Notes: generated by a model from the sequence alone, not told the origin. A stretch of 64,000 nucleotides of DNA from Thermoleophilia bacterium (GCA_025928515.1 JAICJI010000007.1:1335-65334), one strand, 5' to 3'; counted from the first letter of the stretch, positions 7,796-59,827 are shown. A program made the numbers and translations.

Positions 7796-8650
7796 TCAAG
7801 CCGGGACTTTTCGCTCGGTTTCCGGGCTTTTTGCCAGGCTCCTCACGTCGTCCGGAGTGGCAACGCCTGCCTCGGCGCAGGCGGCAGCGAGCTCGGCACG
7901 GACCCGCGCGGGTGCCCCGGGGTCGGAGAACAGGACCGTTCCGAGGGCAACGTCACGCGCTCCGCAGGCGGCGAACTCGAGCGCGTCGCGGCCGGATTCG
8001 ATCCCACCCATGCCGACGATCGGCAGGCCCGTGGCCTCGTGGCAGACGCTCACCGCATGGAGCGCGATCGGCTTCAGCGCCAGGCCCGAGAGGCCCCCGC
8101 TGCCGCGCGCGAGCGCCGGGCGAAGGTGCTTGTCGAGCGCGACGGCCCGCAGCGTGTTGATGAGCGAGAGGCCGTCCGCTCCGGCCGCAGCGACGGCGCG
8201 GGCAACCTCCGCGACGTCGGGGTGCGCAGCCGATAGCTTCGCGTACAGAGGCAGCTCGGTCGCGCGTCGGCACGCGGCAACGATCTCCGCCGCCGAGTCG
8301 GCGGCCTCGTCGACGTTCGGGCACGAGAGGTTGAGCTCGACCGCCTCGATGTTTGCAAGACCCGAACATGTCTCGGCGTAGTCGGCCGCGCAGAAGCCGC
8401 CGACGCTAACCCAGAGCGGAACCCCCAGTTCGCGCAGCCTCGGCAGGTGCTCCGCGAGGAAGCGCTCGCGGCCCGGGTTCGCGAGGCCGATCGCGTTGAG
8501 CATCCCGTGCGCTGTCTCCGCTATCCGAGGGGGTGCGTTGCCCTCACGAGGCAGCGGCGTGACGGTCTTCGTCACGAACGCGTCGAGCTGCCGCGCGACC
8601 TCGGGCGCGGCGAGAGCGTCGAGGCAGCCGCTCGCGTTGAGGATCCTCAC
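7796..8650 (-). CDS. pyrD: dihydroorotate dehydrogenase, class 1B catalytic subunit
   Basis: Contains LNAIGLANPG, NLSCPN and GMGGI motifs. The GTG start forms a GTGA overlap with the pyrK stop. Confidence 0.9.
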   Translation of the reverse strand: MRILNASGCLDALAAPEVARQLDAFVTKTVTPLPREGNAPPRIAETAHGMLNAIGLANPGRERFLAEHLPRLRELGVPLWVSVGGFCAADYAETCSGLANIEAVELNLSCPNVDEAADSAAEIVAACRRATELPLYAKLSAAHPDVAEVARAVAAAGADGLSLINTLRAVALDKHLRPALARGSGGLSGLALKPIALHAVSVCHEATGLPIVGMGGIESGRDALEFAACGARDVALGTVLFSDPGAPARVRAELAAACAEAGVATPDDVRSLAKSPETERKVPA

Positions 8651-9372
8651 GCCTCGGCACCTTGTAACAACTTGTTACTAGCACGCACTTTCGTCACACG
8701 TGCCGCGTCGAGAACCGGGCCTTCGAGACAGAGCCGCTTCAGCGCGCCGTCGATCTCGACCACGCAGCCGTAGCAGGCGCCGTAGCCGCAGGCCATCCGC
8801 GCTTCCCACGCGAGCTGTGCGGTCGGGCACAGCGCGGCGACGGCGTGGAGCATCGGCTCCGGCCCGCAGGCCATGACGTCGTATCCCGGCTCGATCAGCT
8901 CCGTGACGAGAACGGGGTCGACGACGACCTCCGAGCCGGGGAGAAGCGCCGCCGCCTCGGCATGCTCGTCGCTGCGGAAGCCCAGGAGCGCGGGCGGCGA
9001 GCCCCCGAGCTGCTCGGCGAGATACGGCAGCGGCGCGATACCGATCCCGCCGCCGACGAGCAGCGGCCGCTCGACGTCGAGCCGGTAGCCGTGCCCGAGC
9101 GGGCCGAGAACGTGGATCTCGTCGCCGGGCCCGAGGGCACACAGTGCTTCCGTCCCCGGCCCGATGGGGTCGACGAGGAACGCAAGCTCGCCGGGCGGCG
9201 CGAGGCAGAGCGAGAACGGCCGCGGCAGGAGCCGGCCGGGAGCCTCGAGCATGAAGAACTGCCCCGGAGCGCCGGGCTCGAGCTCGCCGCGCTCGAGGCG
9301 CAGCAGCGTGTATGGCCCGACCCACTCGGAGCCGGTGACTCTATGCCGACTGGGTGAGACCGAGCTCGGCAT
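8647..9372 (-). CDS. pyrK: dihydroorotate dehydrogenase electron-transfer subunit (FAD/[2Fe-2S])
   Basis: GQFFML and GGGIGIAPL motifs, plus a C-terminal cluster motif [11 protein letters not shown]. The start is taken at ATG 9372 (MPSSVSP), which overlaps the carB end by 32 nt; the track start at 9444 is less likely. Confidence 0.85.
8664..8682. repeat. exact 19-nt AT-rich repeat containing a 7-1-7 palindrome (copy 1)
   Basis: The sequence gtaacaacttgttactagc is identical to 33578..33596. GTAACAA-C-TTGTTAC is a perfect inverted repeat. It lies in the last codons of pyrK (ASNKLLQ), 14-32 nt upstream of the pyrD start. Confidence 0.9.
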
Positions 9373-12300: not shown

Positions 12301-12442
12301 TGACGACGATCGTGCGGAACCCGTCCTCCCGCAGCACCTTCAACGCCTGGCAGCCCGCGTAGTCGAACTCGGCGGCCTGGCCGATCACGATCGGCCCGGA
12401 GCCGACGATGCAGATCGACTCGATGTCCTCACGCCTAGGCAT
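9341..12442 (-). CDS. carB: carbamoyl-phosphate synthase large subunit
   Basis: Starts [30 protein letters not shown], with duplicated ATP-grasp halves and an MGS-like C-terminus. The start is ATG 12442, which overlaps the carA stop by 8 nt. Confidence 0.97.
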
Positions 12443-13466
12443 TCGCCACCTCCTCGACCCAGGCCTCGAGCAGCGGCCACGCGTCGTGCGGCCCGGGCCC
12501 GGCCTCGGGATGGAACTGCAGCGACCGTGCGCGCAGCTCCGGCAGGTCGAGGCCCTCGACCGTCCCGTCGTAGAGCGAGACATGCGAGACCTCGGCCGCC
12601 TCACTCGGCTTCACCGCGAAGCCGTGGTTCTGGCTCGTCACGAGCACACGGCCCGTGAGCCGCTCGTGCACCGGGTGGTTCGCGCCGCGATGGCCGAACG
12701 GGAGCTTGTACGTCTCGTGGCCGGTCGCCCGCGCGATCAGCTGGTGGCCGAGGCAGATGCCCATCACGTGCGTCCGGCCCAGCAGCTCCTGCACCGTCGC
12801 GGTCTCGGCCGCGAGCGGCTCCGGGTCTCCCGGGCCTGGCGACAGGAGGACGCCGTCGTGGCGCGCGAGCTCGCCGGCGCCCGTGCCGTGCGGATGGACG
12901 GTGACCGCGGCGCCGGCCTTCGCAAGCCTGCGCAGCACCGAGTTCTTGACGCCGTAGTCCACGACGCCGATCGAGACGCGCCCCTCAGAGGCAAACACGT
13001 ACGGCTCGTCGGTCGACACGTCCTCGATCAGGGCGCGCCCGAGCATCGACGGCTGCCGCCCGGCAAGCTCGACCGCCTCCTCGACCGCCAGGTCGGAAGC
13101 GACGGCGATGCCCGGAGCGGAGCCAGCATCGCGTAGGTGGAGTACGAGGCTTCGCGTGTCGATCCCGGTGAGCGCGACGATGCCGCGCTCGCGCAGCCAG
13201 TCGGTCCACTCAGGCCCGCGCGCCTCGCGCATCAGCACCGCCCGCGCGTGTGTCCGCGCCGACTCGCTCCGCTCCTCGGCCACCCCGTAGTTGCCGATCA
13301 TCGGCGCCGTGAAGCAGATGAGCTGATCCTCGAAGCTCGGGTCGGTGACCGCCTCCTGGTAACCCGACATGCCGGTCGTGAAGACGGCTTCGCCGAGCGC
13401 GTGGCCGTCGGCACCGACCGATTCGCCGTGCCAGACCGTTCCGTCGGCGAGCGCGAGATAGCTCAT
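12435..13466 (-). CDS. carA: carbamoyl-phosphate synthase small (glutaminase) subunit
   Basis: Contains [26 protein letters not shown] (catalytic Cys) and NHGFAV. Confidence 0.95.
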
Positions 13467-14776
13467 GCGAGCTCCTTGCTGTCAAGGACGAGCCCTCCAC
13501 CGGCGAGCGTCATGCGCACCGCGCCGCTGAGCTTTGAGCCGAGCAGCCAGGAGTTGGCCGACCGCGAGCGGAAGGGCTGTTCGCCGACCGTCCACTTCCG
13601 GTCGAGGTCGAGGAGGACGAGGTTCGCCCGCGCACCAGCCGCGACCCGCGGCCGATCGAGCCCGAAGATCCGTGCCGGCCCGGCGGACATCCGCTCGAGC
13701 AGCGTCTCGAGCGGCAGCAGGCCGGGCTCGACGAGATGCGTATAGAGCGAGGCGAACGCGGTCTCGAGACCGGTCACGCCGAACGGCGCCGCCTCGAACG
13801 GCACCTCCTTCTCGTGCGCGGCATGCGGCGCGTGGTCGGTCGCTATCGCCTCGATCGTCCCGTCCCGCACGGCGTCGAGCAGTGCCTGCCGATCCTCCTC
13901 GGCCCGCAGCGGTGGGTTCATCTTCACGTTCGGATCGAGCGAGCGAACTGCGTCGTCGGTGAGGACGAGGTGATGCGGCGTCGCCTCACCACTCGCCGCG
14001 ACGCCGGCCTCGCGCGCACGGCGCAGCGCGTCGACCGACTCGACCGCCGAAAGGTGGAGCACGTGGATGCGGCCGCTCTCGTAGCCGGCGAGCGCGAGGT
14101 CACGCTCGACCGCGACCGACTCGGCCACGGACGGATAGCCCGCGAACCCGAGCTCGGCCGCGACGCGTCCCTCGTGCACGTGACCGCCGCGCGAGAGCGT
14201 CGGCTCCTCACAGTGGAGCGCGAGCGGCCGGTCGGTGATCGAGGCGTACTGCAGAGCGCGACGCATGAGGCCCGCGGAGGCGACCGGGACGCCGTCGTCG
14301 GAGAAAGCGACCGCCCCCGTGTCGGCGAGCTCGCCCATCTCGGTCAGCTCCTCCCCGCGCTGCCCGCGCGTGATCGCTGCGAGGAAGCCGACCGGAATCT
14401 CGGCCTCGTGACACGCGGTCTCGACGAGCGCACCGAGCGTGGCCGCCGAGTCGACGATCGGCTCGGTGTTCGGCATGGCGAGGATCGCGCAGTAGCCGCC
14501 GGCCGCCGCAGCCGCGGTCCCGCTCGCGACCGTCTCCTCGTCCTCGCGGCCGGGCGTGCGCAGATGAACGTGCGAGTCGACGAAGGCCGGCGCGAGCACG
14601 AGCCCCTCCGCCTCGATCACGCGGTGCCCGTTCGCGTCCACCTTCTCGGCAACCTCCGCGATCGTCCCGTCGTCGATCCGCACCTCGAGCCGCGCGTCGA
14701 GTCTCTCGGCCGGATCGAGCACGCGCGCGCCGCGGATGACGAGGCTCGCGCCCGGAAGCTCACGCTGCCAGAGCAT
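13463..14776 (-). CDS. pyrC: dihydroorotase
   Basis: Contains FVDSHVHLRTPG, TDHAPH and a cyclic amidohydrolase fold. The start ATG 14776 (MLWQRE) overlaps the pyrB stop by 1 nt (TGATG). Confidence 0.92.
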   Translation of the reverse strand: MLWQRELPGASLVIRGARVLDPAERLDARLEVRIDDGTIAEVAEKVDANGHRVIEAEGLVLAPAFVDSHVHLRTPGREDEETVASGTAAAAAGGYCAILAMPNTEPIVDSAATLGALVETACHEAEIPVGFLAAITRGQRGEELTEMGELADTGAVAFSDDGVPVASAGLMRRALQYASITDRPLALHCEEPTLSRGGHVHEGRVAAELGFAGYPSVAESVAVERDLALAGYESGRIHVLHLSAVESVDALRRAREAGVAASGEATPHHLVLTDDAVRSLDPNVKMNPPLRAEEDRQALLDAVRDGTIEAIATDHAPHAAHEKEVPFEAAPFGVTGLETAFASLYTHLVEPGLLPLETLLERMSAGPARIFGLDRPRVAAGARANLVLLDLDRKWTVGEQPFRSRSANSWLLGSKLSGAVRMTLAGGGLVLDSKELA

Positions 14777-23724: not shown

Positions 23725-23797
23725 AGCGCCAGTAGCTCAGGGGATAGAGCGCGCGCCTCCGGAGCGCGAGGTCGCAGGTTCGATTCCTGCCTGGCGC
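23725..23797 (+). tRNA. tRNA-Arg (anticodon CCG)
   Basis: Hand-folded cloverleaf, 73 nt. The acceptor stem is GCGCCAG/CTGGCGC, the D-arm GCTC-AGGGGATA-GAGC, the anticodon stem CGCGC/GCGCG with loop CTCCGGA, and the T-arm GCAGG-TTCGATT-CCTGC. The discriminator is A and no CCA is encoded. Confidence 0.93.
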
Positions 23798-24350
23798 ATT
23801 ACGGGACGCATGGGCAAGCGGGTTTAGCTCAACCATGCGACCCGGGTGTGCCGCGAGGGTCCTGAAATCGCGGATGGTGCGTACACCGGTGTGCACACCG
23901 GGTCTAGGCCGCTTCGATCTGCAACAACCCGCGGTGCTCGATGCCTAGGACGTAGAACCGAGGCGGTCGATCACGTACACGGCAACCTCCACCAACAGGA
24001 GGAGGCTCAGACCCATCAGCGCGAGCGTTGAGAGCGCCCAGACCATCAGAGCAGCGTCCCCTGTGCGCTGGTTGTGGTTATCGCAAAGTGCATGACGAGC
24101 AAACGGGACTCAGCCGGCGGAGGGTACGGCCGCTGACTGTATTCCGGCACACGCGACGGATGGACGAGGCGGTCACCTATTGCGTGGGTAGCTGCGGACG
24201 ACCAATCCTGGACCGCGCAGCGCCCGACATTCGGCCCGTGGAGCGCAGCGTCGACTTCGAGACATTCGGCTGAACAGTCTCTTAAATCCGGCGGCTTCCC
24301 GAGACCCGCCCGTCTAGGTTCCAGCACATCGTCTCGCGAAGGGGGCCAAC

Positions 24351-30760: not shown

Positions 30761-30833
30761 AGCGGGAGACGGGACTCGAACCCGCGACCCTTGGCTTGGG
30801 AAGCCAATGCTCTACCAACTGAGCTACTCCCGC
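30761..30833 (-). tRNA. tRNA-Gly (anticodon CCC)
   Basis: The reverse complement folds by hand as GCGGGAG-TA-GCTC-AGTTGGTA-GAGC-A-TTGGC-TTCCCAA-GCCAA-GGGTC-GCGGG-TTCGAGT-CCCGT-CTCCCGC-T, 73 nt. Confidence 0.93.
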
Positions 30834-50270: not shown

Positions 50271-50981
50271 GTGGCTAGCATTCGCCTCGTGGACGGCCAG
50301 TACGTCGCGTACACGTTCTTCCGCGTCGATCCGGCGTGGCGGCGGCTGCCGGCCGAGGAGCGGCAGGCGCACAAGGACGCGTTCGCGGAGGTCGTCGAAG
50401 ACTTCGCCGAGCGGTTCGAGCACCTGCGCGCCTACTCGACGACGGGCGTACGGCCCGACTCAGACTTCTTCCTCTGGAAGATCTGCGAGCGCTACGACCT
50501 GCTCGAGGAGCTCGGCACAGCGCTCAACGCGACCCCGCTCGCCGGCTGGCTCGAGACGACCTACTCGTACCTCGCCACGACGAAGGCGTCGCAGTACACG
50601 AGCGCCCGCAAGGCACGCAAGATCACGCCGCACGGGCTGCCGTATCTCGTCGTCTACCCGTTCGTGAAGATGCGACCGTGGTACGCGCTGACCGAGGAGG
50701 AGCGGCAGCGGGCGATGGACGAGCACATCCGGATCGGCCGCGAGGAGTTCCCGGGGATCAAGAACCACACGACGTACTCGTTCGGGATCGACGACCAGGA
50801 GTTCATGACGGCCTTCGAGTGCGAGGAGCCCGCCGACTTCATGCACCTGATGCTGCGACTCCGCGACAGCGAGGCCTCGCGCTACACCGAGCGCGACACG
50901 CCGATCTTCGTCGGTCGCTTCGTGCCGGTGCGAGAGGCGCTCGCGGCGCTCGACGGCGCGTCGGCCCGCGTCGAGGCCTAA
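50271..50981 (+). CDS. hemQ: coproheme decarboxylase (chlorite-dismutase-family HemQ/ChdC)
   Basis: 236 aa with YTFFRVDPAWRRLPAEER, YVVYPFVKMRPWY and the two ferredoxin-like halves typical of HemQ. Confidence 0.85.
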   Translation: MASIRLVDGQYVAYTFFRVDPAWRRLPAEERQAHKDAFAEVVEDFAERFEHLRAYSTTGVRPDSDFFLWKICERYDLLEELGTALNATPLAGWLETTYSYLATTKASQYTSARKARKITPHGLPYLVVYPFVKMRPWYALTEEERQRAMDEHIRIGREEFPGIKNHTTYSFGIDDQEFMTAFECEEPADFMHLMLRLRDSEASRYTERDTPIFVGRFVPVREALAALDGASARVEA

Positions 50982-53900
50982 CCGCAGACGCGGGAATACG
51001 CCCGCCCGCCCACGAAGCGTTGCCACTCCTCAGGCGTGAAGTTGCGGCCGGCGACCGCACAGGCGTGTTGCTCCCAGGCGTCGAGCGAGATCGGCCAGCG
51101 GTAGGCGGTTCCGTCGCCGAAGACGTAGATCAGGTACCGCCCGTCGGGCGTGTAGCCGATGTTCCCCCACTGGCCCGCACCGCCGGGGAAGTCCGAGCCA
51201 AGCTGTTGCTGGGTGGCGGTCACCCAGATTCTCGCGCCGCCGCTCGAACCGCCGGTCGTGGCGAAGGTCTTTCCGTCGGGCGCGAACGCGATGCCGGCGA
51301 GGGGAGCCGGGGCGACGAGCGTCTGGTGCCCGATGCTCTGCCCCGTCTTCGGGTTCCAGAGATCGACGATGCCGCTCCAGGCGCCCGTCGCGAGCGTGCC
51401 GTCGGGCGAGAAGGCCAGGGCGGTGATGCCACCGTTCGCGGCCTTTGGCTCGAGTATGCGCTCGACCTTCCCAGTCGCGGTCTCGACGATGAGAACGTGT
51501 GCGGCGCCGGCCCCCACCGGCTCGGTGCCGACTGCAGCCGTCGAACCGTCCGGCGAGAGCGCGACGGTGTCGCCGAATGTGTGCAAGTTCAGCGGCTTCC
51601 CGCCGGAGAGCTTCCCGTCGCGCCAGACTGCGAATTCGCCCTCCTGCGGCGGCCCCGCGTTCTTGGGCGCGGGCCCATACCAGCCGTCGGTCGCCGCGAC
51701 GACGCGACCGCCTTCGGCGGTCGCGAGCGAGCGGACGAGCGCCTGGGGAGACAAGCCCCGGAGCTTGTTCTCCGGGTGCGCGGTCCGGGTGCCTACGTTC
51801 CAGAACTGGACGAGCCCACGGTCTCCACCCAGCACGAAGCGCTTCCCCGCCCATGCTCCGGCACCGACGTTGCGCCCGCGGGCGAGCGCGACGGTGTCCA
51901 CGTGTCTGAGTGACACCGCGGAGTAGATGTCGACCCGCGACTGCGAGGCGCTCGCGGCGAAGAGCCCGCCGCTCGGTGCGACGGCCAGCAGCGGCGAGGG
52001 CGGCGTGGCCGGAGACAGGGTGGTCGAGTCGGAGATCACGTGAGGGAACGAGAATTGCCGTCCGAACCTCCTGCTCGTGCCGAGGTCCCACTCGAAGGTG
52101 GCCCCGTCGAGGCTCGAGGTGAAGAGCGTTCGGCCGTCGTTCGTGAGCGCCGCGCCGAGTACCCGTCCGGCATGGCCGTACAGCCGCTCTACGCGCGTCC
52201 GGGCTCGGACGTTCCAGACGATCACGGATCCGTCCTCGGCGGTCGACACCAACTGCCTTCCGTTCGGCGAAAAGGCGAGCGTGACGACGGGGGCGCTATG
52301 ACCTCCTTGCCCGATCTTCTGCTGTCTTGTCCCGAGGTTGACGAAGGTGACCGACCCTGTGTCCGAGCCCACGGCGAGCGTCGACCCGTCGGGACTGACC
52401 GCGGTCGATCCGTTGAGCGGTGAGACGCTCACGCGGCGAACTACGTCGAGTTTCTTCGTGTCGAGGAACGTGACCGTCGACGTCCCGACAACCGCGAGCT
52501 CATGTCCCCTGTCGACAAGAGCCGCGCTGTTGACACCGTCAGCACCGACTGGGGCCGCCTTGGCCGTGAGCTTGCCGGTGGCCACGTTCCAGCGATCGAC
52601 GAACGCCGCGGTGCTGGGAGCCGGGGGAGTCAGCTGATAGACGTAAAAGAGCATCCGTCCGTCGGGGCTGAAGAAGAGAGGAACGTTCGGGTTGGTGGCC
52701 GGATTGTGCAGCCACTGGGGATCGAAGGGAAGCAGCCGTTGGACCGCGAGCGTGCGCGCGTTCGCGACTTCGACGTACTCCACGCCCTCCTTCGGGCTCG
52801 TGAAGAACGCGAACGAAGAGCCGCCTGCGTTGAACGCGGGGGGATCTCCGAAGGCAGATCTCCTGAATACGTGCAGCGTCTTGCGAGTCCGAGGGTCGAC
52901 GAGCCGCAAATGGTCGGCGTTGTCGGGAATACCGAGGACCGAGCCGTCGGGGCTCACGCTGGTCGCGCAGCAGGGACGCACGGAGTCCGGGACGGTGAAC
53001 GTGGCGATGGCAGCCGGTGACCGCAGCAAGGTCGCGAGCAGCGTCCCTTCGGTCTGAGGTGAGTCGTCGAGGTTCAGCGACTCGCGGGCGAGCAGCATGG
53101 CGATGTCGATCCGCGGCTCCGAGACCGCTTCGGCGCCGAGCTGGCGGCCGAGCGCGACGGTGGCCTCGTGCTGCGCGCTCGAGCGCGACGCGAGCGCGAG
53201 CGCGCCCGCGATGATCGCGAGGACGAGCAGCCCGACAGCGCCGGCAAGCAGCGTCCTCAACCGCCGGTTCCGCTGCCGCTCGCGCGCGAGCTCGAGCTCG
53301 TTCGCGGTGCGGCTGGCATCGACGAACTCGCGCTCGAGCTCCGTCAGTGCGATCGTCAACTCGGCGGCGAGCGCGTCGAACTGGGCGAGGTTGCTGCCGC
53401 GCAGCAGATAGCTCGGCTCGCGGTCGGCGTCTTCCCACTCCCGCGCCGCCGAGGCGAGCCGACGGTGCAGGCGCACCTGTTCACGTCCGCTGTCGATCCA
53501 GCGGCGGAACCTCCCCCACTCGCGCATCAGCGCCTCGTGCGCGACCTCGATCGTGGGCGTCCCGGTGCGCGGGTCGCGGTCGAACGAGAGCAGGCGCCAC
53601 GCGCCGAACGCCTGGATCGCCTCCTCGAGCGCGTCCTGGTCGACCTCCATCGACGCCAGCTCGGTCCGCTCGACGCGGCGCCGTGTGTCCTCGGCTCCCT
53701 CGCCGAGCGTGACGAGCCGGAGGAAGAGCTGGCGCGCGGCCTCCTGTGCCTGCTCCCCGAGCCCGTCGTAGATCTCCTCGGCACGGCCCGCGAGAGCGCC
53801 CGAGACGCCGCCGATCGTGCGGTAGGCGTCCGCCGTGAGGGTGTTTCCCTCGCACCGCTCGTAGAGCTCGGTCAGCGCGTACTGGAGCAGGGGCAGCGCG

Positions 53901-55198
53901 CCGGGCGCGTCGGCAACGTCTGCCACGAGCTGAGCGGTCAAGCCCGGCTCGAACCTGGCGCCGACGCGCTCGGCCGGGCCGGCGATCGCTCGCTCGAACT
54001 CCTCGGCTCGCAACGGCACGAGCGCCTCGACGTAGTCCCGCAGCAGCTCCGCGAAGCCGCTGTAGAGCAGCGGGCGGTCGTAGAAGTCGGCGCGGAGGGT
54101 GACGACGACGCGAAGCCTCGCGTGCGGGTCGGTGACCGCACGCTCGAGCAGCGCGAGGAACTGCGTCCGGCGGGTCTCGTCCTCGACCAGTGTGAACACC
54201 TCCTCGAGCTGGTCCACGACGAGCACGAGCTCGGACTCGTCGGCGGCGAGGAGACGCTTGACGGCGCGCAGCAGGCCTCGCTCGTCCTGTTCGAGCTGCT
54301 CGAGCAAGCCCGGCTCGGGCCTGTCCGCAGCGCGCAGAAGTGCCGCCTCGAGCTCCTCGAGCGGGTACGCACCGGGGAACATCTCGACGACGTACCAGTG
54401 CTCGGAGCCTGGCAGCGCGCCCGCCCGGAGCCGCGGCAACAGCCCGGCACGGACGACGGACGACTTGCCGCTTCCGCTCGGCCCGACGACGGCGAGGAAG
54501 CGCGTGGACTCGAGCCGCTCGACAAGATGCTCCGTGAGCGCCTCCCGGCCGAAGAAATCCTCCGCGTCTTGCTCGCCGAAGGCGCGCAGTCCCTTGTACG
54601 GATTCCGGGTGTCGCCCGCGCCGGTCGCGGCGGGATCCAGCGCCCGGCGGAACGCAAGCTCGCGGGCGACGTCCTCACGCTCGGGTCGAACGGCGACCAC
54701 GTCCATCGGCTTCTCGAGCCCTTTGAGCCGCACCGCGCCACGCTCGACGTACTCGAGCCCTTCGACCTTTCGGGCGAGGTGCGCAACGCCCGGACTGATG
54801 AGCACCTCTCCCGGTCCGGCGATGGAGCAAAGCCGAGCCGCGAGGTTGAGCGCTCCACCGCGGTAGCCGCCGTCGACCGGCACGGCCTCGCCCGCGTCGA
54901 GCCCGATCCCGACCGCAAGTGGAAGGCTCGGATCGGCGACCGTCTCCGCGACGAATTGCTCCTGCAGCTCCGACGCCGCACGCAGCGCCTGCCGCGCCGA
55001 GTCGAATACCGCGAGCGCCTCGTCGCCTCGCAACTCGACGAGCGTCCCGCCGGCGGCCTCGATCGCTTCGCGCGCCAGCTCGGCGAACCGCGTCGCGAGC
55101 CGCGCGGCCGCCTCGTCCCCGCGCTCCTGCGTGAACCGCGTATATCCGCGAACGTCCGCGATCAGGAACGTCTTGATCCCGGCTTCGACAGCCGCCAT
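50978..55198 (-). CDS. multidomain signalling protein: class III nucleotidyl cyclase - nSTAND P-loop NTPase - TM helix - WD40 beta-propellers
   Basis: 1406 aa. The cyclase region contains FLIADVRGYT..RGDEALAVF..GGALNLAARLCS..GEVLIS. The NTPase region contains NPYKGLRAFGEQDAEDFFGRE, GPSGSGKS (nt 54484-54461) and LVLVVDQLEE. The hydrophobic segment is LLAGAVGLLVLAIIAGALALA (nt 53254-53189). WD40 repeats include GHSAPVVTLAFSPNGRQLVSTAEDGSVIVWNV. Confidence 0.85.
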   Translation of the reverse strand: MAAVEAGIKTFLIADVRGYTRFTQERGDEAAARLATRFAELAREAIEAAGGTLVELRGDEALAVFDSARQALRAASELQEQFVAETVADPSLPLAVGIGLDAGEAVPVDGGYRGGALNLAARLCSIAGPGEVLISPGVAHLARKVEGLEYVERGAVRLKGLEKPMDVVAVRPEREDVARELAFRRALDPAATGAGDTRNPYKGLRAFGEQDAEDFFGREALTEHLVERLESTRFLAVVGPSGSGKSSVVRAGLLPRLRAGALPGSEHWYVVEMFPGAYPLEELEAALLRAADRPEPGLLEQLEQDERGLLRAVKRLLAADESELVLVVDQLEEVFTLVEDETRRTQFLALLERAVTDPHARLRVVVTLRADFYDRPLLYSGFAELLRDYVEALVPLRAEEFERAIAGPAERVGARFEPGLTAQLVADVADAPGALPLLQYALTELYERCEGNTLTADAYRTIGGVSGALAGRAEEIYDGLGEQAQEAARQLFLRLVTLGEGAEDTRRRVERTELASMEVDQDALEEAIQAFGAWRLLSFDRDPRTGTPTIEVAHEALMREWGRFRRWIDSGREQVRLHRRLASAAREWEDADREPSYLLRGSNLAQFDALAAELTIALTELEREFVDASRTANELELARERQRNRRLRTLLAGAVGLLVLAIIAGALALASRSSAQHEATVALGRQLGAEAVSEPRIDIAMLLARESLNLDDSPQTEGTLLATLLRSPAAIATFTVPDSVRPCCATSVSPDGSVLGIPDNADHLRLVDPRTRKTLHVFRRSAFGDPPAFNAGGSSFAFFTSPKEGVEYVEVANARTLAVQRLLPFDPQWLHNPATNPNVPLFFSPDGRMLFYVYQLTPPAPSTAAFVDRWNVATGKLTAKAAPVGADGVNSAALVDRGHELAVVGTSTVTFLDTKKLDVVRRVSVSPLNGSTAVSPDGSTLAVGSDTGSVTFVNLGTRQQKIGQGGHSAPVVTLAFSPNGRQLVSTAEDGSVIVWNVRARTRVERLYGHAGRVLGAALTNDGRTLFTSSLDGATFEWDLGTSRRFGRQFSFPHVISDSTTLSPATPPSPLLAVAPSGGLFAASASQSRVDIYSAVSLRHVDTVALARGRNVGAGAWAGKRFVLGGDRGLVQFWNVGTRTAHPENKLRGLSPQALVRSLATAEGGRVVAATDGWYGPAPKNAGPPQEGEFAVWRDGKLSGGKPLNLHTFGDTVALSPDGSTAAVGTEPVGAGAAHVLIVETATGKVERILEPKAANGGITALAFSPDGTLATGAWSGIVDLWNPKTGQSIGHQTLVAPAPLAGIAFAPDGKTFATTGGSSGGARIWVTATQQQLGSDFPGGAGQWGNIGYTPDGRYLIYVFGDGTAYRWPISLDAWEQHACAVAGRNFTPEEWQRFVGGRAYSRVCG

Positions 55199-55246
55199 CG
55201 GGGGATCGTGCGCTTCGGCGCGAGCTAAATCAAGACCGCGGTGCGA

Positions 55247-55621
55247 TCACACATACGTGTGCTGGTCGCGCCACGTGCGCCACATGGCGAGGCCGCAGAG
55301 CGCGAGCACCGCGACGAAGGCGAGCACCTGGTAGCCGACCGCCCCGCCGTACCAGTAGACACCGACGTCGGCGACGGCCACGATCGCCGCGCCGTAGAAG
55401 ACCGTCTGCGCCCGCTGAGGCCACATCGAGATGCCTTCACGCCGGTCGCGCCAGACGAGGAAGACGAAGTAGGCGATCGCCAGCATGAAGGCGACGCGCG
55501 CGAGGACACTCAGCGCCAGCAGCGTCTGCTCGAGCTGGAACACGACGATCAGCCCCGCGATGACCGCGAGGATCACCATCCCGCGCAAGAACGGGTTGAT
55601 GCGGGAGAAGAAGCTGTTCAT
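55247..55621 (-). CDS. small 4-TM membrane protein
   Basis: The start is taken at ATG 55621 (MNSFFSRINPF), which forms an ATGA overlap with the upstream stop. It has four hydrophobic helices. Confidence 0.5.
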   Translation of the reverse strand: MNSFFSRINPFLRGMVILAVIAGLIVVFQLEQTLLALSVLARVAFMLAIAYFVFLVWRDRREGISMWPQRAQTVFYGAAIVAVADVGVYWYGGAVGYQVLAFVAVLALCGLAMWRTWRDQHTYV

Positions 55622-55974
55622 GTGGCCGTCAAATACGCCCGCACCGCGAGCGCTCCTGCCACCAACGTAGCGCCGGTGAACCACGCCAGCCGTCCGCGGC
55701 GCTCGTTCGGCGCGTACATCCAGGGCGCGAGCACGGCGAGCAGCGAGAGCGTCCCGTAGAGGTAATGAAGCTTGTCTGCCGCTCGATGATGGCTCGAGAG
55801 AAGCAGGAGCCCGATGCCGACCTGGGCGACGAGCAGCGTCTGGGCGAGTGCGAGCAGGTGTGTGAGGAGCCCACGCGGCTCAGCCCGGCGGTAGTACGTC
55901 CAGGCGCCTGCCCCCGCGGCGCCGAACGTGGCAGCGAGAACCGCGAACGCGACCGCATGGTGGACGCCGAGCAT
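55618..55974 (-). CDS. small 4-TM membrane protein, His-rich loops
   Basis: 118 aa with hydrophobic helices and conserved-looking His residues (SSHHRAADKLHY). Confidence 0.5.
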   Translation of the reverse strand: MLGVHHAVAFAVLAATFGAAGAGAWTYYRRAEPRGLLTHLLALAQTLLVAQVGIGLLLLSSHHRAADKLHYLYGTLSLLAVLAPWMYAPNERRGRLAWFTGATLVAGALAVRAYLTAT

Positions 55975-56008
55975 GGCCGGCGGAGCCTACCGTCGCGGTT
56001 GCCTGCCG

Positions 56009-56818
56009 CTATTCGGTGTCGGTCTGGCCGGGATCCGGCGCAGGAGCGGGAGGCGTCCCCTCGTCCGGCGGCGGATACGGCTCGGGCACCTGCGCCGGCG
56101 TCGGCGGATTCCCCTCGTCCGGGGGCGGGTACGGCGCGCTCGGTTCGTTTGGGGTGACCATCATCGTCTGCTGTACCGGAAGTCGCGCGCGACGAATCCT
56201 CTCGTCGGCACCGGCGAGCTGCTCTGCGAGCGCGTCTTCGATCCGTTTCGCCTCCTGCTCGAGCTCCACGAGCTGCTCCCGCGCCTGGCGCTCGGCATTC
56301 GAGTCGCTTCGCCAGACGGCCTCGCCGAGCGCCTGCAGTGCCGGACCTCGCTCGTACGTGATCGCATCGAGCCGCGACCGCGTGCGCCAGCGGTTGACGG
56401 CGGTATCGAGCTTCGTGCGCCAGATCTCCGCAGCGGTCGCCGCATGTGCGCGGCCGTCGGACGCGAGGCGTGAGGAGTGCTGCGCCCACTCGTCGGCGCT
56501 CCGTCGCGTCGTTTCCCCGAGAGCTGCGAGCAGGATCAGCGCCAGGATCAGTAGACCGATCGCCCAGCCCCAGCTTCCGGTCGCGAAGAGCCCGATCGCG
56601 GCTCCGACTGCCGCAAATCCGAGGCAGAGGAGGACGAAGCGCGCGGGCAACCCGAGCCAGCGCCGTTCGACGCTCTCCCGCACGACGGGGCCGGGAACGG
56701 TCTCGAGCAGCGGCAGCTCGGCCACCGCCGCGCCGCAGCTCGGGCAGAAGCGCGCGCTCTGCACGAGCTCCTCGCCGCAGCTACGGCACGCGCTGTCCGC
56801 GATCGGTGATGCGCTCAT
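56009..56818 (-). CDS. zinc-ribbon membrane protein with coiled-coil and Pro-rich repeat tail
   Basis: The N-terminus is CRSCGEELVQSARFCPSCG, followed by two TM helices and a helical region. The C-terminus repeats PYPPPDEG(N/T)PP twice. Confidence 0.6.
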   Translation of the reverse strand: MSASPIADSACRSCGEELVQSARFCPSCGAAVAELPLLETVPGPVVRESVERRWLGLPARFVLLCLGFAAVGAAIGLFATGSWGWAIGLLILALILLAALGETTRRSADEWAQHSSRLASDGRAHAATAAEIWRTKLDTAVNRWRTRSRLDAITYERGPALQALGEAVWRSDSNAERQAREQLVELEQEAKRIEDALAEQLAGADERIRRARLPVQQTMMVTPNEPSAPYPPPDEGNPPTPAQVPEPYPPPDEGTPPAPAPDPGQTDTE

Positions 56819-57119
56819 GTCCGGCTTGTGCCCCGCCTTCGAGCGCTCGTAACGCCTCGGCAGCCCGCCTGCGCAACGGGCCGACCTGCGCGCGGTAGTC
56901 GACGTCGGACACCTTGCCGGTGCGATGGTCGAACTCGAGCTCCTTCAGCGCCGCCAGGGCGCGATCCCGCTCCTCCGCGAGCGCGAGCCGCTGCCTCGCC
57001 TCGGGTGCGAGCTCGTCGAGCCGGTCGCTCGCGGGTGACGGATCGCGGAGGAACGGCCGCGCGACGAAGACGACGGCGACGACCGCGAGCATCGCCGCGA
57101 CGGCGAGCGGCCACCCCAC
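56781..57119 (-). CDS. CcmI-like N-terminal module (TM helix plus helical domain)
   Basis: 112 aa. The TM helix is PLAVAAMLAVVAVVFVA, followed by LAALKELEFDHRTGKVSDVDYRAQVGPLRRRA. This resembles the CcmI-1 region (L..EL..D...G.i....y) from memory. It has no Cys, so it is not a CcmH. Confidence 0.45.
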   Translation of the reverse strand: MGWPLAVAAMLAVVAVVFVARPFLRDPSPASDRLDELAPEARQRLALAEERDRALAALKELEFDHRTGKVSDVDYRAQVGPLRRRAAEALRALEGGAQAGHERITDRGQRVP

Positions 57120-57120
57120 G

Positions 57121-59091
57121 TCAGATTCCCGCTGGAGCAGCGCCGGCCGCGTACCGCGCGGCGAGCCGCCGCTGCTCGACCGCGTCTGGCCACATCGCGA
57201 TCAGCGCTCCCGCCACGAAGACGAAGCCGGCGACCCAGATCAAGTTGATGAGCGGTTTCACGAACACCTGGAAGTCGATCTTGTCGACCCTCCCGTTCTT
57301 CGTCGGCAACGCCTGCGCCCTCGTGAAGACGTCGCCGATCGAGCGCGGGTCGTGGTAGATCGAGGCCTCGGTCGCCCACCCTTCGATGGCGTAATGGTTC
57401 TCGCCGGGCTTGAGGGTGAATCGCTCGCCGTGGCCGGATACAGGGATGAGCGCGCGATAGCCCGTGTAGTTCGCTCCGCGCACGCCGGCACTCCCGGCGT
57501 ACGTGAACGTGTAGCCCGCCGCCGTGATCGACTGGCCGGGGCTGAGCACGCGCTCGCGCACCGTCTGGTACGCGCTCGAGCCCGCGATGCCGATCGCGAG
57601 CAGGACGACCGCGGCGTGCACGACATAGCCGCCGTAGCGCCGCCGGTTGCGTGCAATGAGATGGAAGACTCCGCCTGCCGCCGCTCGTCCACGCACGAAC
57701 TCGAGCACGATCGACGCGGCGACGAAGGACCCGAACGAGTACGCGAGCAGGCCTGGCCACGAGCTCCCGAAACCGAGCGCGAGCAGCACGGCACCGGTCA
57801 CGACCGCTGTGACAAAGGGGATGAGGAACGTCTTCCCGAGCGAGCGAAGCGACGCCCTCCGCCAGGCCACGAGCGGCCCAAGCCCCATGAGCAGCAGCAG
57901 CGGCAGGCCGAACGTGTGGAGGAAGAAGTCGTAGTACGGCTTCGAGACCGACCGCGTCTCGCCGCGCAGGGCCTCCGAGACGATCGGGTAGAGAACGCCC
58001 CAAAGGATCGTCAGCGCCAGGGCGACGAGCAGCAGGTTGTTGTAGAGGAAGGTCGCCTCCCGCGAGACGAGCGACTCGAGCTTCGTCTTCGTCCGCAGTA
58101 GCGGCAGGCGCCAGCGGATCAGCGCCACCGAGAGGAAGATCATCAGGCCGAGGAAGGCGAGGAACCAGCCGCCGATCGGGCTCCGCGAGAACGAGTGGAT
58201 TGAGTCGACGACGCCCGAGCGGGTGAGGAACGTCCCGAACAGCGAGAGGTTGAAGGCGAGTGCGACGAGCACCATGTTCCAGACCTTCAGCATCCCGCGC
58301 TTCTCCTGGATCATCACCGAGTGGAGGAACGCGGTCGCGGCGAGCCACGGCATGAGCGCTGCGTTCTCGACCGGATCCCAGGCGTAGTAGCCGCCCCAGC
58401 CGATCTCGACGTACGCCCAGTGGGAGCCGATCAACTGGCCGACGCCGAGGAACGTCCAGGCGGCGAGCGTCCACCGCCGCGTCGCGACGATCCAGCGCTC
58501 GTCGGTCCGTCCCGAGAGCAGCGCGCCCATCGCGAAGGCGAACGGGACGGTGAGGCCGACGTAGCCGAGATAGAGCAGCGGCGGGTGGGCGAGCATGTAC
58601 GGGTTCTGCAGGCTCGGCACCATCCCCTTGCCGTCGCCCGCAGCCGGCTGCATGTGGAACGGGCTGGAGACGAAGCAGAGCATGAAGGCGAAGAAGACGC
58701 CGACGAGCCCGAACACGGGCACGGTCCAGGCGATCAACTCGCGCGAGCGGCGGTTGAGCCAGACGGCGAGGCCGCCGTAGCCGGTGAGCACGAGCAGCCA
58801 GAGCAGGAGCGAGCCCTCCTGGCCTCCCCAGAAGGCGGACAGCGCGTAGCCGAGAGGCAGCTTGTGACTCGTGTGCTGCCAGACGTAGACGAAGGTCATG
58901 TCGCGGCGGCCCAGCGCGACGAGCAGCACGATCGCGGCGACGAGCGTCACCGGGAACGCGGCGAGGAGCGCGTTCTGTGCCGACAGGGCGAGCCTCCGTC
59001 GCCGCTTCCAGGCGGCGTACGAGCCCGCGATCAGCGCATAGAGGACAAGGCCGAAGGCGAGGAGGAGCGCAGCGCGCCCGAGCGGGGCCAT
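57121..59091 (-). CDS. ccmF: cytochrome c-type biogenesis heme lyase subunit CcmF
   Basis: Polytopic protein with the WWD motif GWGGYYAWDPVENAALMPWL. The start is taken at ATG 59091, which forms a TAATG overlap with the ccmE stop. Confidence 0.92.
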   Translation of the reverse strand: MAPLGRAALLLAFGLVLYALIAGSYAAWKRRRRLALSAQNALLAAFPVTLVAAIVLLVALGRRDMTFVYVWQHTSHKLPLGYALSAFWGGQEGSLLLWLLVLTGYGGLAVWLNRRSRELIAWTVPVFGLVGVFFAFMLCFVSSPFHMQPAAGDGKGMVPSLQNPYMLAHPPLLYLGYVGLTVPFAFAMGALLSGRTDERWIVATRRWTLAAWTFLGVGQLIGSHWAYVEIGWGGYYAWDPVENAALMPWLAATAFLHSVMIQEKRGMLKVWNMVLVALAFNLSLFGTFLTRSGVVDSIHSFSRSPIGGWFLAFLGLMIFLSVALIRWRLPLLRTKTKLESLVSREATFLYNNLLLVALALTILWGVLYPIVSEALRGETRSVSKPYYDFFLHTFGLPLLLLMGLGPLVAWRRASLRSLGKTFLIPFVTAVVTGAVLLALGFGSSWPGLLAYSFGSFVAASIVLEFVRGRAAAGGVFHLIARNRRRYGGYVVHAAVVLLAIGIAGSSAYQTVRERVLSPGQSITAAGYTFTYAGSAGVRGANYTGYRALIPVSGHGERFTLKPGENHYAIEGWATEASIYHDPRSIGDVFTRAQALPTKNGRVDKIDFQVFVKPLINLIWVAGFVFVAGALIAMWPDAVEQRRLAARYAAGAAPAGI

Positions 59092-59498
59092 TACGTGTTC
59101 GAGGACTTGGCCGGCTTGTAGTGATCCGGGCACTTGGCGATCATCGAGCCCGGCTGCGCGACGAAGACGCCGTTGCGCATCGTCCCGTTGACCACGATGT
59201 CGCTTCCCGACTTGACCAGGTCGGGGACGCTGCCGTGATAGACGACCGCGACGCGCGCCGGGTTCGCCGAGTGGGCGTCCTTGAGCATGAAGCGCATGCC
59301 TGCCTGCGTGTGAGCGGCGGGGATGTTCGGCTTACCGACGACGGCGCCGACGAGCGCGACGCTGCCCGTGTGGCCGGCGAGCGTGCTCGGCCGGAGCTGC
59401 GCGACGCCGTTGCCGGCGATTGCCGTGTACACGACGAAGATGGCCAGAGCGGCCGCCACGGAGAGAGCGATTACAAGCCGCGCAGGACTCGATCCCAC
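59091..59498 (-). CDS. ccmE: heme chaperone CcmE, variant with Cys in place of the heme-binding His
   Basis: An N-terminal TM anchor and an OB-fold. The C-terminal motif MIAKCPDHYKP aligns with the canonical LAKHDENYTP, giving CxxxY instead of HxxxY. Confidence 0.85.
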   Translation of the reverse strand: MGSSPARLVIALSVAAALAIFVVYTAIAGNGVAQLRPSTLAGHTGSVALVGAVVGKPNIPAAHTQAGMRFMLKDAHSANPARVAVVYHGSVPDLVKSGSDIVVNGTMRNGVFVAQPGSMIAKCPDHYKPAKSSNT

Positions 59499-59540
59499 GC
59501 GCGCATCGTAGCCCTCGCGCGCCCGAACGAGCGGCAGTCG

Positions 59541-59783
59541 CTAGCTCTTCGGAGCCTTCGCCGGCTTGCGGGCCGGAATGCGGTACCCATGCTCGTGGCA
59601 GAGCGAGCCCGGCGCGTCCTCGGTGAGCGCGTCGCAGTAGCCCTTCCCGTACGCGGCGCGCAGGAAGGCGGCGACGACTTCGAGGTTCCACTCCGTCACG
59701 TCGAGCGTCTCGCGCCAGAGATCGGCAAGGCGAAGGTCGATGTCGAGCTCGAGGAGATCGATTCTGGATGGGCGCTTGGGCAT
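59541..59783 (-). CDS. hypothetical small protein
   Basis: An 80-aa ORF upstream of ccmE with no recognised family. Confidence 0.3.
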   Translation of the reverse strand: MPKRPSRIDLLELDIDLRLADLWRETLDVTEWNLEVVAAFLRAAYGKGYCDALTEDAPGSLCHEHGYRIPARKPAKAPKS

Positions 59784-59827
59784 GCCGAAAAAGTAGGAAG
59801 AGGATCGGACGGCATAGGCTGGGATTC

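Follow-up and report, generated by a model that had tools for sequence, protein, structure and literature searches.

The locus analysed here raises the question of which cytochrome c maturation (Ccm) system an actinobacterium encodes when the heme chaperone CcmE carries a cysteine in place of its heme-binding histidine. The window, a stretch of 64,000 nucleotides from a Thermoleophilia bacterium, contains three genes on the minus strand at 56781-59498: ccmE, ccmF and a gene for a 112-amino-acid CcmI-like protein. The initial annotation, made from the sequence alone, described the genome as actinobacterial in type, and the host is indeed an actinobacterium common in soil, a member of the Gaiellaceae (class Thermoleophilia). 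Cys-type Ccm systems have been published as System I* (Allen et al. 2006; Goddard et al. 2010; reviewed in Stevens et al. 2011, PMC3601427). We conclude that the cluster is an ordinary member of System I*, the already described Cys-type version of c-type cytochrome heme attachment. It very probably represents the heme-ligation half of that pathway, inherited within the order Gaiellales. For comparison we used 38 Gaiellales-type loci, with some counts based on 34 loci or on 34 aligned CcmE sequences.

The ccmE gene (59091..59498, minus strand) encodes a putative membrane-anchored heme chaperone of 135 amino acids, with an OB-fold chaperone domain and a single N-terminal membrane anchor. It matched PF03100 with 51.7 bits (cut-off 24.6), and its best score against the canonical equivalogs of NCBIfam was 47.4 bits, below the cut-off of 126; these scores fit a divergent subfamily. 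The C-terminus (...MIAKCPDHYKPAK) aligned without gaps with that of E. coli CcmE (...LAKHDENYTPPE; PDB chains 8ce8_E and 1sr3_A), pairing Cys123 with His130 and Tyr127 with Tyr134 in the motif CPDHY (Cys123-Pro-Asp-His-Tyr127). By this alignment, Cys123 occupies the covalent heme-binding position of CcmE and Tyr127 the axial-ligand position. The CxxxY motif proposed in the initial annotation, with cysteine replacing histidine, is thus confirmed. Among PDB entries, 2kct, a CcmE of the Cys type from Desulfovibrio vulgaris, matched best. Since the best 120 homologues listed all keep K-C-x3-Y (CPDHY in 95, CPSKY in 18 and CPSHY in 7), the cysteine is not a one-off substitution. Of 34 CcmE sequences taken from the loci and aligned, 32 have the motif as well; the remaining two are truncated or frameshifted.

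Downstream, ccmF (57121..59091, minus strand) encodes 656 amino acids of a putative heme lyase/holocytochrome c synthase subunit, counted from an ATG that lies in a TAATG stop/start overlap with ccmE; the longest open reading frame starts at an in-frame GTG upstream, at 59133. The overlap, which recurs among relatives, had been reported from the sequence together with an intact WWD motif, and we found both, plus four conserved histidines. Matches to PF16327 (185 bits) and PF01578 (111 bits) exceeded their cut-offs (28.7 and 29.9), and residues 6-639 aligned with Thermus CcmF (6zmq) at E 6e-88. The score against TIGR00353 (CcmF/NrfE) was 406 bits, below the cut-off of 569. The WWD motif reads WGGYYAWDPVEN; His169, His257, His299 and His492 are at positions equivalent to those of canonical CcmF, which are numbered 173, 261, 303 and 491 in E. 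coli (Richard-Fogal et al. 2009). CcmF is full length and intact, with its WWD heme-handling motif and all four histidines. Across the Gaiellales loci, CcmF proteins are 61-94% identical.

Could CcmE and CcmF instead form an NrfE-like lyase pair that, together with the short CcmI, matures particular cytochromes only, while a general System II (ResBC/CcsBA) operates alongside? CcmF scored about as well against NrfE-like models (TIGR03145, 385 bits; PRK10369, 319 bits) as against the general CcmF/NrfE model, but both scores lie far under the respective cut-offs of 927 and 394. System II is the pathway of the model Actinobacteria (PMC9145763), ccmABCD genes are unlinked to the cluster, and on one Gaiellales chromosome (L030) the cluster adjoins one particular oxidase, a cbb3-like enzyme with a two-CxxCH subunit encoded directly upstream of ccmE. 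However, the window contains no nrfA, nrfF/G or CxxCK protein, and none of its 59 genes encodes a CxxC[HK] protein. The surroundings of the cluster are housekeeping genes in most loci, and 728 kb of Gaiellales sequence, all from around this region, yielded no System II gene. We therefore consider the specialised pair unlikely. Substrates for a c-type cytochrome pathway do exist in the lineage: in addition to the L030 oxidase, bc1 and cytochrome c oxidase are encoded by Gaiella occulta (PMC6741124).

The third gene of the cluster (56781..57119, minus strand) starts at a GTG one base past the ccmF stop. Its 112-residue product is helical, with one N-terminal hydrophobic transmembrane helix, no cysteine and, on the cytoplasmic side, a helical segment that is conserved (...ALKELEFDHRTGKVSDxDYR...GPLRR). 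Neither the Pfam and NCBIfam profiles nor the sequence, which ends at residue 112, revealed a second transmembrane helix or TPR. Against TIGR03142, the CcmI N-domain, the protein scored 22.8 bits, below the cut-off of 29.3; a bona fide TPR-bearing CcmI from a canonical operon (L165) did no better, at 20.7 bits. The same profile matched 11 of 13 members of the 112-residue family, and the proteins of a Gemmatimonadota-type locus (L038) and of L042 matched it equally weakly. Alignment by hhalign with proteins encoded after ccmF/ccmH in other ccm operons gave a probability of 98.5% (E 3.8e-15). From these profile comparisons, the protein appears homologous to the N-terminal module of CcmI, and to that module only. 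Like the N-terminal domain of CcmI/CycH (CcmI-1), it has a transmembrane helix followed by an E-L-E/D-x-D-x3-G-K-L-x4-Y/H signature, and its gene directly follows ccmF/ccmH; unlike CcmI/CycH, it has a single transmembrane helix, no periplasmic TPR domain (CcmI-2) and a score below cut-off. A CcmI-like gene followed ccmF in 31 of 34 loci. In other lineages, a zinc ribbon or a BNR propeller takes the place of TPR as the fusion partner of the CcmI N-module.

We also considered a CcmH identity for this protein and rejected it, as there is no cysteine (and no LRCxxC) and a Pfam scan matched neither CcmH (PF03918) nor any other family. This agrees with the earlier description of a cysteine-free transmembrane and helical protein that is CcmI-like and not CcmH. 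As CcmE, CcmF and CcmI all scored below the NCBIfam equivalog cut-offs, the three proteins are divergent from the curated canonical families.

With a 1-nt overlap between ccmE and ccmF and a 1-nt gap before the 112-residue gene, the three genes are translationally coupled. Their GC content (0.68-0.71) equals that of the surroundings. Chance can be set aside: the family matches are strong and the genes are under purifying selection, with GC3 (0.87-0.92) like that of their neighbours. Short metatranscriptome contigs cover the WWD region of ccmF, the core of the 112-residue gene and p80, an upstream neighbour, giving a weak sign of expression.

Several neighbours accompany the cluster. A zinc-ribbon membrane protein of 269 amino acids (56009..56818, minus strand; PF13240 Zn_Ribbon_1, E 6e-7) has an N-terminal CxxC...CxxC ribbon, two transmembrane helices, a coiled coil and a Pro-rich tail. 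In most Gaiellales loci the CcmI-like gene is followed by this gene, whose start overlaps it by 38 nt in the window and in L036. In four other lineages (L039, L058, L100 and L104), a CcmI-like module and a zinc ribbon form one protein within the ccm operon; the fused ribbon was confirmed as PF13240 in L039 and L100. Gene order and fusion thus make the zinc-ribbon protein a candidate partner of the short CcmI. On the other side, p80 (59541..59783, minus strand) is an orphan soluble protein of 80 amino acids; its gene lies 42 nt upstream of ccmE, in the same orientation. It has two invariant cysteines (...AAYGKGYCDALTED.PGSLC..HGY...) and matched nothing in Pfam, NCBIfam or PDB. At 77-98% identity across Gaiellales loci, p80 is conserved more strongly than CcmE, and a 46%-identical homologue still lies beside ccmE in a divergent locus with different surroundings (L041). 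Judged by gene order, p80 may be an accessory particular to this lineage or just a neighbour that has been conserved.

Beyond the zinc-ribbon gene, two small co-directional membrane-protein genes (55247..55974, minus strand; 118 and ~124 amino acids, the latter starting near 55621; GC3 0.82-0.91) matched no family in Pfam or NCBIfam. They occur in Gaiellaceae only, conserved just in the closer loci L002-L013, and correspond to gene calls of 118 and 124 amino acids in L036. A terminator-like hairpin after them (55234-55248) may mark where the transcription unit ends; the hairpin count was not above that of shuffled sequences.

We asked where the rest of the pathway might be. In the 64-kb window, tblastn with references for CcmA, CcmB, CcmC, CcmD, CcmG, CcmH (three references) and CcdA gave no match, and Pfam scans of 28 window ORFs revealed no further Ccm component. 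Both searches agree with the initial statement that ccmABCD, ccmG and ccmH are missing from the window. No thiol-reduction branch (CcdA/ResA/CcmG) was seen either, with no CcmH, redoxin or CcdA match in the window. In 37 of the 38 Gaiellales-type loci, ccmABC(D) was not found within ~10 kb of ccmE; in most other lineages examined, these genes are in the same operon. Gaiellaceae ccmC was not retrieved by two protein-database profile searches (best 120 matches listed) or by one metagenome DNA scan with the pattern WTW[DE]xRLT.

These absences, together with p80 and the zinc-ribbon protein as unexplained conserved neighbours, would suit a minimal CcmE-CcmF system, with or without the short CcmI, that dispenses with CcmABCD and obtains heme by another route, perhaps helped by cytoplasm-facing neighbours. 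We find this account very doubtful. The failed ccmC searches are weak tests, because only the best 120 matches were listed and the DNA pattern required WTW[DE]xRLT. In a relative with a 61% identical CcmF (L032), ccmC, ccmB and ccmA flank ccmEF, adjoining hemC and hemD, and the WWD motif there (WGHWWVWSERQL) is outside the reach of that pattern. To our knowledge, no system studied loads heme onto CcmE without CcmC. Archaea, too, scatter their ccm genes over several loci (PMC9084895). Related operons carry the whole pathway around these three genes: the order ccmE(CxxxY)-ccmF-(ccmH)-short ccmI-ccmA-B-C-D occurs in a Marinimicrobia-type locus (L039), in Desulfosporosinus L040 and in L042, and in a Gemmatimonadota-type locus (L038) the order is ccmB-C-D-ccmF-short ccmI, where no ccmE was called alongside.

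The cluster can now be set against known systems. The initial annotation held that CxxxY combined with loss of CcmH defines the variant, a view that is outdated. System I* with a Cys-type CcmE functions without CcmH and CcmG, but CcmH is present in about one-third of bacteria with Cys-type CcmE, so its absence is not characteristic of System I* (Stevens et al. 2011, PMC3601427). Among our loci, CPSKY CcmE co-occurs with CcmH in Desulfosporosinus L040 and in L042. The System I* of Desulfovibrio desulfuricans and D. vulgaris, which includes the nearest structural match to the window's CcmE, is similar in its WWD-domain CcmF, its dispensable CcmH and the presence of CcmI, which is known to enhance System I* without being essential to it (PMC3601427). 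It differs in that most Gaiellaceae have CPDHY rather than the usual CPSKY (25 of 36; PMC3601427), and in that the window's CcmI is cut down to 112 amino acids without TPR, the operon does not include ccmABCD, the zinc-ribbon protein and p80 are attached and the host is a Gram-positive-type actinobacterium. The streamlined Ccm of Methanosarcina acetivorans (CcmABCEF; PMC9084895) likewise combines a Cys-type CcmE with absence of CcmH, as in the window, but its CcmF is split into CcmF1 and CcmF2, whereas the window encodes a single protein; archaea reportedly have neither CcmI nor CcmD (PMC9084895), whereas the window has the CcmI N-module. Canonical System I (E. coli CcmABCDEFGH; R. capsulatus CcmFHI; and, as a complete operon, L163 and L165 from MAGs labelled Streptosporangiaceae) shares homologous CcmE, CcmF and CcmI N-module. 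In contrast to the window, however, its CcmE has HxxxY (VKHNGDY in L163), and in L163 and L165 ccmF is followed by genes for CcmG, an LRCxxC-type CcmH and a TPR-bearing CcmI.

The p80-ccmE-ccmF-short ccmI block, with or without the zinc-ribbon gene, is syntenic in nearly all 38 Gaiellales-type loci in a housekeeping context, and ccmE-ccmF was present in every such locus long enough to show the pair. The flanking genes (AP-endonuclease-family TIM barrel, phosphoglucomutase, RelA, UvrC and HemQ) are constant across the order. The closest CcmF proteins outside Gaiellales are 41-44% identical and equally far in many phyla. Given this synteny, host-like composition and distance, the cluster looks inherited within the order rather than recently transferred, and the suggested lateral acquisition finds no support as a recent event. 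Although System I* is patchy among phyla (PMC3601427), Ccm genes have moved between domains (PMC9084895) and Gaiellales CcmF is no closer to other actinobacterial-labelled CcmF (37% identity) than to that of other phyla, a recent transfer island bringing in a foreign Ccm system is extremely improbable, as GC and GC3 equal those of the surroundings, the flanking genes are the same across the order, no mobile-element genes are adjacent and even the nearest outside CcmF is so distant. A transfer in the distant past, at the base of the order, is conceivable. The claim that the system is unusual for its phylum stands relative to the model genera, which use System II (PMC9145763), but System I is not unique to this lineage, as MAGs labelled Streptosporangiaceae, Nonomuraea and Terrabacter carry a complete canonical System I operon.

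How would the heme-ligation half of System I* operate in this lineage? Covalent heme on the CcmE cysteine and maturation in vivo have been demonstrated in D. desulfuricans (PMC3601427) and M. acetivorans (PMC9084895) only; in the latter, the cysteine is needed for heme binding (PMC9084895). By analogy with the systems studied in E. coli, R. capsulatus, D. desulfuricans and M. acetivorans, CcmE would receive heme outside the membrane and bind it covalently with its cysteine. Holo-CcmE would then dock on CcmF, whose b-heme (His257/His492) may reduce the incoming heme, and the WWD domain, flanked by His169 and His299, would present it to the CxxCH of secreted apocytochromes, for instance those destined to become cytochrome c subunits of oxidases and of the bc1 complex. 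The short CcmI may add a membrane helix and a cytoplasm-side helix to the CcmF complex; as it has no TPR repeats, it cannot serve as a periplasmic apocytochrome chaperone. A further partner of the short CcmI on the cytoplasmic face is probably the zinc-ribbon membrane protein encoded by the overlapping gene. CcmABC(D), the heme-loading module, would be expected elsewhere on the chromosome, comparable to the dispersed ccm genes of archaea.

A bolder model, in which Cys-type CcmE and CcmF, with the TPR-less CcmI, the zinc-ribbon protein and p80 as cytoplasm-facing helpers, form a Gaiellaceae synthase that is independent of CcmABCD, is quite unlikely to hold. If true, it would mean that Gaiellaceae possess a pared-down cytochrome c synthase freed from the classical CcmABCD heme-loading complex. 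More likely than this is its weaker form, in which the CcmI N-module and zinc ribbon together are a cytoplasmic subunit of System I* synthases that is widely conserved but has gone unrecognised. As for the System I* variant itself, it had not been pointed out in the phylum Actinobacteria before.

The ccm genes lie on the reverse strand in a tight co-directional gene row at 55.2-59.8 kb, which runs from p80, encoding an 80-amino acid orphan protein (59541-59783), to two small membrane-protein genes (55247-55974). A 42-nt gap separates p80 from ccmE (59091-59498; PF03100), whose stop codon has one base in common with the ATG of ccmF at 59091 (TAATG). The ccmF gene ends at 57121, and a gene for a 112-amino acid CcmI-like protein (ccmI′, 56781-57119) begins with GTG one base past the ccmF stop. 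This gene is overlapped by 38 nt by the start of a gene for a 269-amino acid zinc-ribbon membrane protein (56009-56818). A terminator-like hairpin follows the two small membrane-protein genes, but it is a single site in a region where terminators are no more numerous than in shuffled sequences or by chance; a promoter scan of the cluster region found none. G+C content is ~70% all along the window, and the third-position GC of every ORF in the row (0.82-0.92) is the same as that of the window's real genes.

The predicted CcmE exceeds the PF03100 threshold. HMMER alignment to the solved E. coli CcmE chains placed the window's ...IAKCPDHYKPAK on E. coli ...LAKHDENYTPPE, so that Cys123 falls at the position of His130 and Tyr127 at that of Tyr134. 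The proposal in the initial annotation that cysteine replaces the covalent heme-binding histidine is therefore upheld by residue-level alignment. K-C-x3-Y is present in all of the best 120 homologues (CPDHY in 95, CPSKY in 18, and CPSHY in 7), and the cysteine is a family trait. In the CPDHY motif, a histidine adjoins the axial tyrosine. Among solved structures, the closest is that of Cys-type CcmE from Desulfovibrio vulgaris (2kct). Database relatives of CcmE number 1805; those with names are "Gaiellaceae bacterium" metagenome-assembled genomes (MAGs), whose proteins are already annotated as CcmE and CcmF by NCBI.

CcmF exceeds both Pfam CcmF models, and its alignment with CcmF of Thermus thermophilus (6zmq, E 6e-88) runs end to end. 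The window's CcmF carries WGGYYAWDPVEN and His169, His257, His299, and His492, the counterparts of E. coli His173, His261, His303, and His491 (numbering of Richard-Fogal et al., 2009). The gene overlap and the intact WWD motif noted from the sequence are thus both confirmed. Order-wide conservation, intact motifs, and gene-like codon bias led us to reject the view that the cluster is a pseudogene or relic.

We asked what else of a Ccm system the window encodes. Searches of the 64 kb by tblastn with CcmA, CcmB, CcmC, CcmD, CcmG, CcmH, and CcdA from five complete operons gave no further match, and Pfam scans of 28 window ORFs detected no other Ccm component, bearing out the claim that ccmABCD, ccmG, and ccmH are missing from this stretch. 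The translations of other ORFs read as housekeeping proteins, pyrR-pyrB-pyrC-carAB-pyrK-pyrD, gmk, coaBC, gap-pgk-tpi, whiA, uvrC, argS, and hemQ. The CxxC[HK] motif occurs in none of 59 confident window genes. The only Rfam matches are two tRNAs, at 23726-23798 (forward strand) and 30761-30833 (reverse strand), which are unrelated to the cluster. The hemQ gene (50271-50981, forward strand) encodes a chlorite dismutase-family protein of the HemQ/coproheme decarboxylase type (PF06778, E 3e-52). In Gaiellaceae loci, a HemQ-type gene is a few kb away from the ccm genes, which puts a heme-synthesis gene close to heme-attachment genes. Between hemQ and the ccm-side genes stands a gene on the reverse strand (50978-55198) for a 1406-amino acid nSTAND1 NTPase with WD40/PD40 repeats and, by eye, a cyclase-like N terminus. 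It occupies this site only in the window and in one comparison locus (L007); in other Gaiellaceae loci, hemQ is directly next. The NTPase gene looks like a variable insertion.

In most of the outside lineages examined, ccmA-ccmB-ccmC-ccmD share an operon with ccmE and ccmF; at the Gemmatimonadota-type locus L038, ccmB-C-D precede ccmF and no ccmE was called. In contrast, ccmABCD are not found within ~10 kb of ccmE in the window or in 37 of the 38 Gaiellales-type loci (728 kb in total). The exception, L032, comes from an "Actinomycetota bacterium" MAG whose CcmF and CcmE are 61% and 52% identical to those of the window. There (7483-13583), ccmC lies upstream of and divergent from ccmE, hemC and hemD come after ccmC, and ccmB and ccmA run convergently toward the end of ccmF. 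All of these genes are Pfam-confirmed, and the locus has no p80, no CcmI-like gene, and no zinc-ribbon gene. Its CcmC keeps both histidines and has an atypical WWD motif, WGHWWVWSERQL, where WGxxWxWDxRLT is usual.

Searches for a Gaiellaceae ccmC were negative. When a profile of CcmC from four outgroup operons served as the query, the protein database yielded only Gemmatimonadota, Marinimicrobia, Desulfosporosinus, and similar lineages among the matches listed. A GC-rich DNA pattern for WGx[WFY]WTW[DE]xRLT found at least 120 loci on metagenome contigs, none of those listed having a CcmF more than 50% identical to that of the window. Clustering, gene context, and tetranucleotide profiles, a measure that does not discriminate (Gemmatimonadota scored 0.91), made no Gaiellales locus stand out among these. 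Another profile, derived from those ccmC loci that most resembled actinobacteria, recovered Streptosporangiaceae-labelled MAGs and one further lineage, each with its own complete operon. Because of its unusual WWD motif, a CcmC of the L032 type is invisible to these searches. Since the L032 locus reveals that the clade owns a CcmABC, ccmABC are most probably located elsewhere in the window's genome.

To characterize the third protein of the cluster, we compared it with CcmI and CcmH. A single hydrophobic helix stands at the N terminus of the 112-amino acid protein, which contains no cysteine and gives no CcmH signal. The protein matches the CcmI N-terminal domain model TIGR03142 at 22.8 bits, below the 29.3 cut-off. 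Sub-threshold matches recur in 11 of 13 members of the Gaiellales family, and the corresponding small proteins encoded in the L038 and L042 operons also match; the bona fide tetratricopeptide repeat (TPR)-bearing CcmI that follows ccmH in the canonical operon L165 scores only 20.7 bits. Using hhalign, we aligned a profile of the Gaiellales family with a profile of proteins that follow ccmF or ccmH in nine other ccm operons, including the N termini of one TPR-CcmI and one BNR-propeller fusion. The two profiles matched with a probability of 98.5% (E 3.8e-15) and have a common core consisting of a transmembrane helix, a P-[FL]-[LF] turn, and the signature [LIV]-x-E-L-E/D-F-D-x3-G-K-[LV]-x4-Y/H. 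The match and the shared core indicate that the protein corresponds to the CcmI N-module alone, in agreement with the earlier view that it is CcmI-like and not a CcmH. Compared with full CcmI, it lacks the second transmembrane helix and the periplasmic TPR domain, which chaperones apocytochromes.

The C-terminal partner of the CcmI N-module varies. It is a TPR domain in L163 and L165, a BNR/sortilin-like propeller instead of TPR in L166-L168, a zinc ribbon in L039 (12010-12423), L058, L100, and L104, or absent. In the four zinc-ribbon loci, both modules form one polypeptide encoded inside the ccm operon. The window's zinc ribbon, which opens the gene overlapping ccmI′, belongs to the same Pfam family (PF13240) as those of L039 and L100. 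Because the two modules are fused elsewhere and their coupling is conserved here, a functional link between the short CcmI and the zinc-ribbon protein is plausible. Judged by the positive-inside rule on sequence alone, the helical segment of CcmI′ and the zinc ribbon should both face the cytoplasm.

The p80 protein is soluble, with two invariant cysteines in AAYG[KQ]GYCDAL...G.LC...GY (window, L002-L035, and the divergent locus L041). Its copies across Gaiellales share 77-98% identity, which makes it more conserved than CcmE, and a homologue (46%) adjoins ccmE even in L041, where the surroundings differ. No relative was detected in Pfam, NCBIfam, or PDB, and a single-sequence AF2 model was poor (pLDDT 53). 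On one Gaiellales-type chromosome (L030), a cbb3-like oxidase cluster (2456-10148) is inserted between p80 and ccmE. It encodes a COX1-family subunit, a FixO/Cytochrome_CBB3 (FixO/CcoP-like) subunit with two CxxCH motifs, and a 1209-amino acid COX1-related protein. This arrangement fits the cluster's inferred role in cytochrome c supply. In L028, p80 lies at a similar distance upstream of ccmE.

Together, these features identify the cluster as a System I variant of the Cys type in which the third protein is CcmI-like. This is the already described System I* and not a new variant. According to Stevens et al. (2011, PMC3601427), Cys-type CcmE is found in archaea, in many δ-proteobacteria, and in some members of the Chloroflexi and Firmicutes. 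The System I* motif is CPSKY in 25 of 36 genomes (PMC3601427), while that of the window is CPDHY. In System I*, CcmI is a dispensable factor that raises cytochrome production (Goddard et al., 2010, per PMC3601427). Work on Methanosarcina (Gupta et al., 2022, PMC9084895) showed that heme binding requires the cysteine of CcmE, that CcmABCEF are sufficient, and that the organism's ccm genes are dispersed. Actinobacteria are mentioned in neither PMC3601427 nor PMC9084895, and a literature search for Ccm genes in Gaiellales or Thermoleophilia returned no paper.

The initial annotation took Cys-type CcmE with loss of CcmH to define the variant. The CcmE type is right, but loss of CcmH is not diagnostic, as CPSKY-type CcmE occurs with CcmH (PF03918) and a short CcmI-like protein in L040 (Desulfosporosinus, 11973-13291) and L042 (4238-5082). 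In L040 the CcmH motif reads LICPAC; in L042 it is a Cys-rich stretch, LCDCGCH...CSC. Thus, Cys-CcmE and CcmH are not mutually exclusive. A second Ccm type was found in MAGs labelled Streptosporangiaceae, Nonomuraea, or Terrabacter by their submitters, an abundant soil lineage with a complete canonical System I operon: ccdA-ccmA-ccmB-(460-amino acid protein with two CxxCH)-ccmC-ccmD-ccmE(HxxxY)-ccmF-ccmG-ccmH-ccmI(TPR)-hemA (L163, 6159-15634; L165, 7067-15480; ccdA in L163 only). Actinomycetota-labelled soil lineages therefore hold at least two Ccm types. By the textbook rule, Actinobacteria use System II. The claim that the window's system is unusual for its phylum holds against the model genera, but if those labels are right, System I is not peculiar to Gaiellales within the phylum.

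We also considered how the cluster was acquired. A scan of one genome per GTDB species gave 33 loci, all labelled Gaiellaceae, Gaiellales, Thermoleophilia, or generic Actinomycetes/Actinomycetota. Almost all Gaiellales-type loci hold the order p80-ccmE-ccmF-ccmI′, usually with the zinc-ribbon gene next. They are flanked on one side by genes for a sugar-phosphate-isomerase/AP-endonuclease-family TIM barrel and phosphoglucomutase, relA, and recJ, and on the other by hemQ and uvrC. Among 1.84 billion representative proteins, Gaiellales CcmF clusters were 59-84% identical to the window's, and the next ones, from many phyla, 41-44%. In a pairwise matrix, all comparisons with non-Gaiellales CcmF were at 37-43%. 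The outside lineages examined were Desulfosporosinus (L040), Gemmatimonadota-type (L038), Marinimicrobia-type (L039), L042, L166, and Streptosporangiaceae-labelled (L163, L165). These distances, the host-like composition, and the order-wide synteny argue for vertical inheritance within the order Gaiellales, with no recent donor identifiable. The suggested lateral acquisition is thus unsupported as a recent event, although an ancient transfer may have occurred.

At least 20 soil or rhizosphere metagenome DNA runs, drawn from about ten studies, contained at least 0.9 of the 31-mers sampled from 55200-59800. The window organism, or a near-clonal population, is geographically widespread, a cosmopolitan member of the Thermoleophilia living in soil. 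Metatranscriptome contigs from roots and soil matched the ccmF WWD region, the core of the 112-amino acid gene, and p80 at 95-100% identity; these pieces are short (50-150 nt), could come from close relatives or DNA carry-over, and only weakly suggest expression.

The novelty lies in the host lineage (Thermoleophilia/Gaiellales), not in the kind of system. New details are the CPDHY motif, the CcmI without TPR, a cluster set apart from ccmABCD, p80, and the coupled zinc-ribbon protein. Modest mechanistic leads are a natural CcmI cut to its membrane/cytoplasmic module, recurrent zinc-ribbon fusion or coupling, and the CPDHY histidine beside the axial tyrosine; the E. coli Δccm complementation system has already been applied to Desulfovibrio. 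Our results extend Cys-CcmE System I* from archaea, δ-proteobacteria, Chloroflexi, and Firmicutes to Thermoleophilia (Actinomycetota). Since the window's sequence recurs almost unchanged in at least 20 soil and rhizosphere metagenomes, the rule that Actinobacteria use System II probably fails for abundant uncultured soil lineages.
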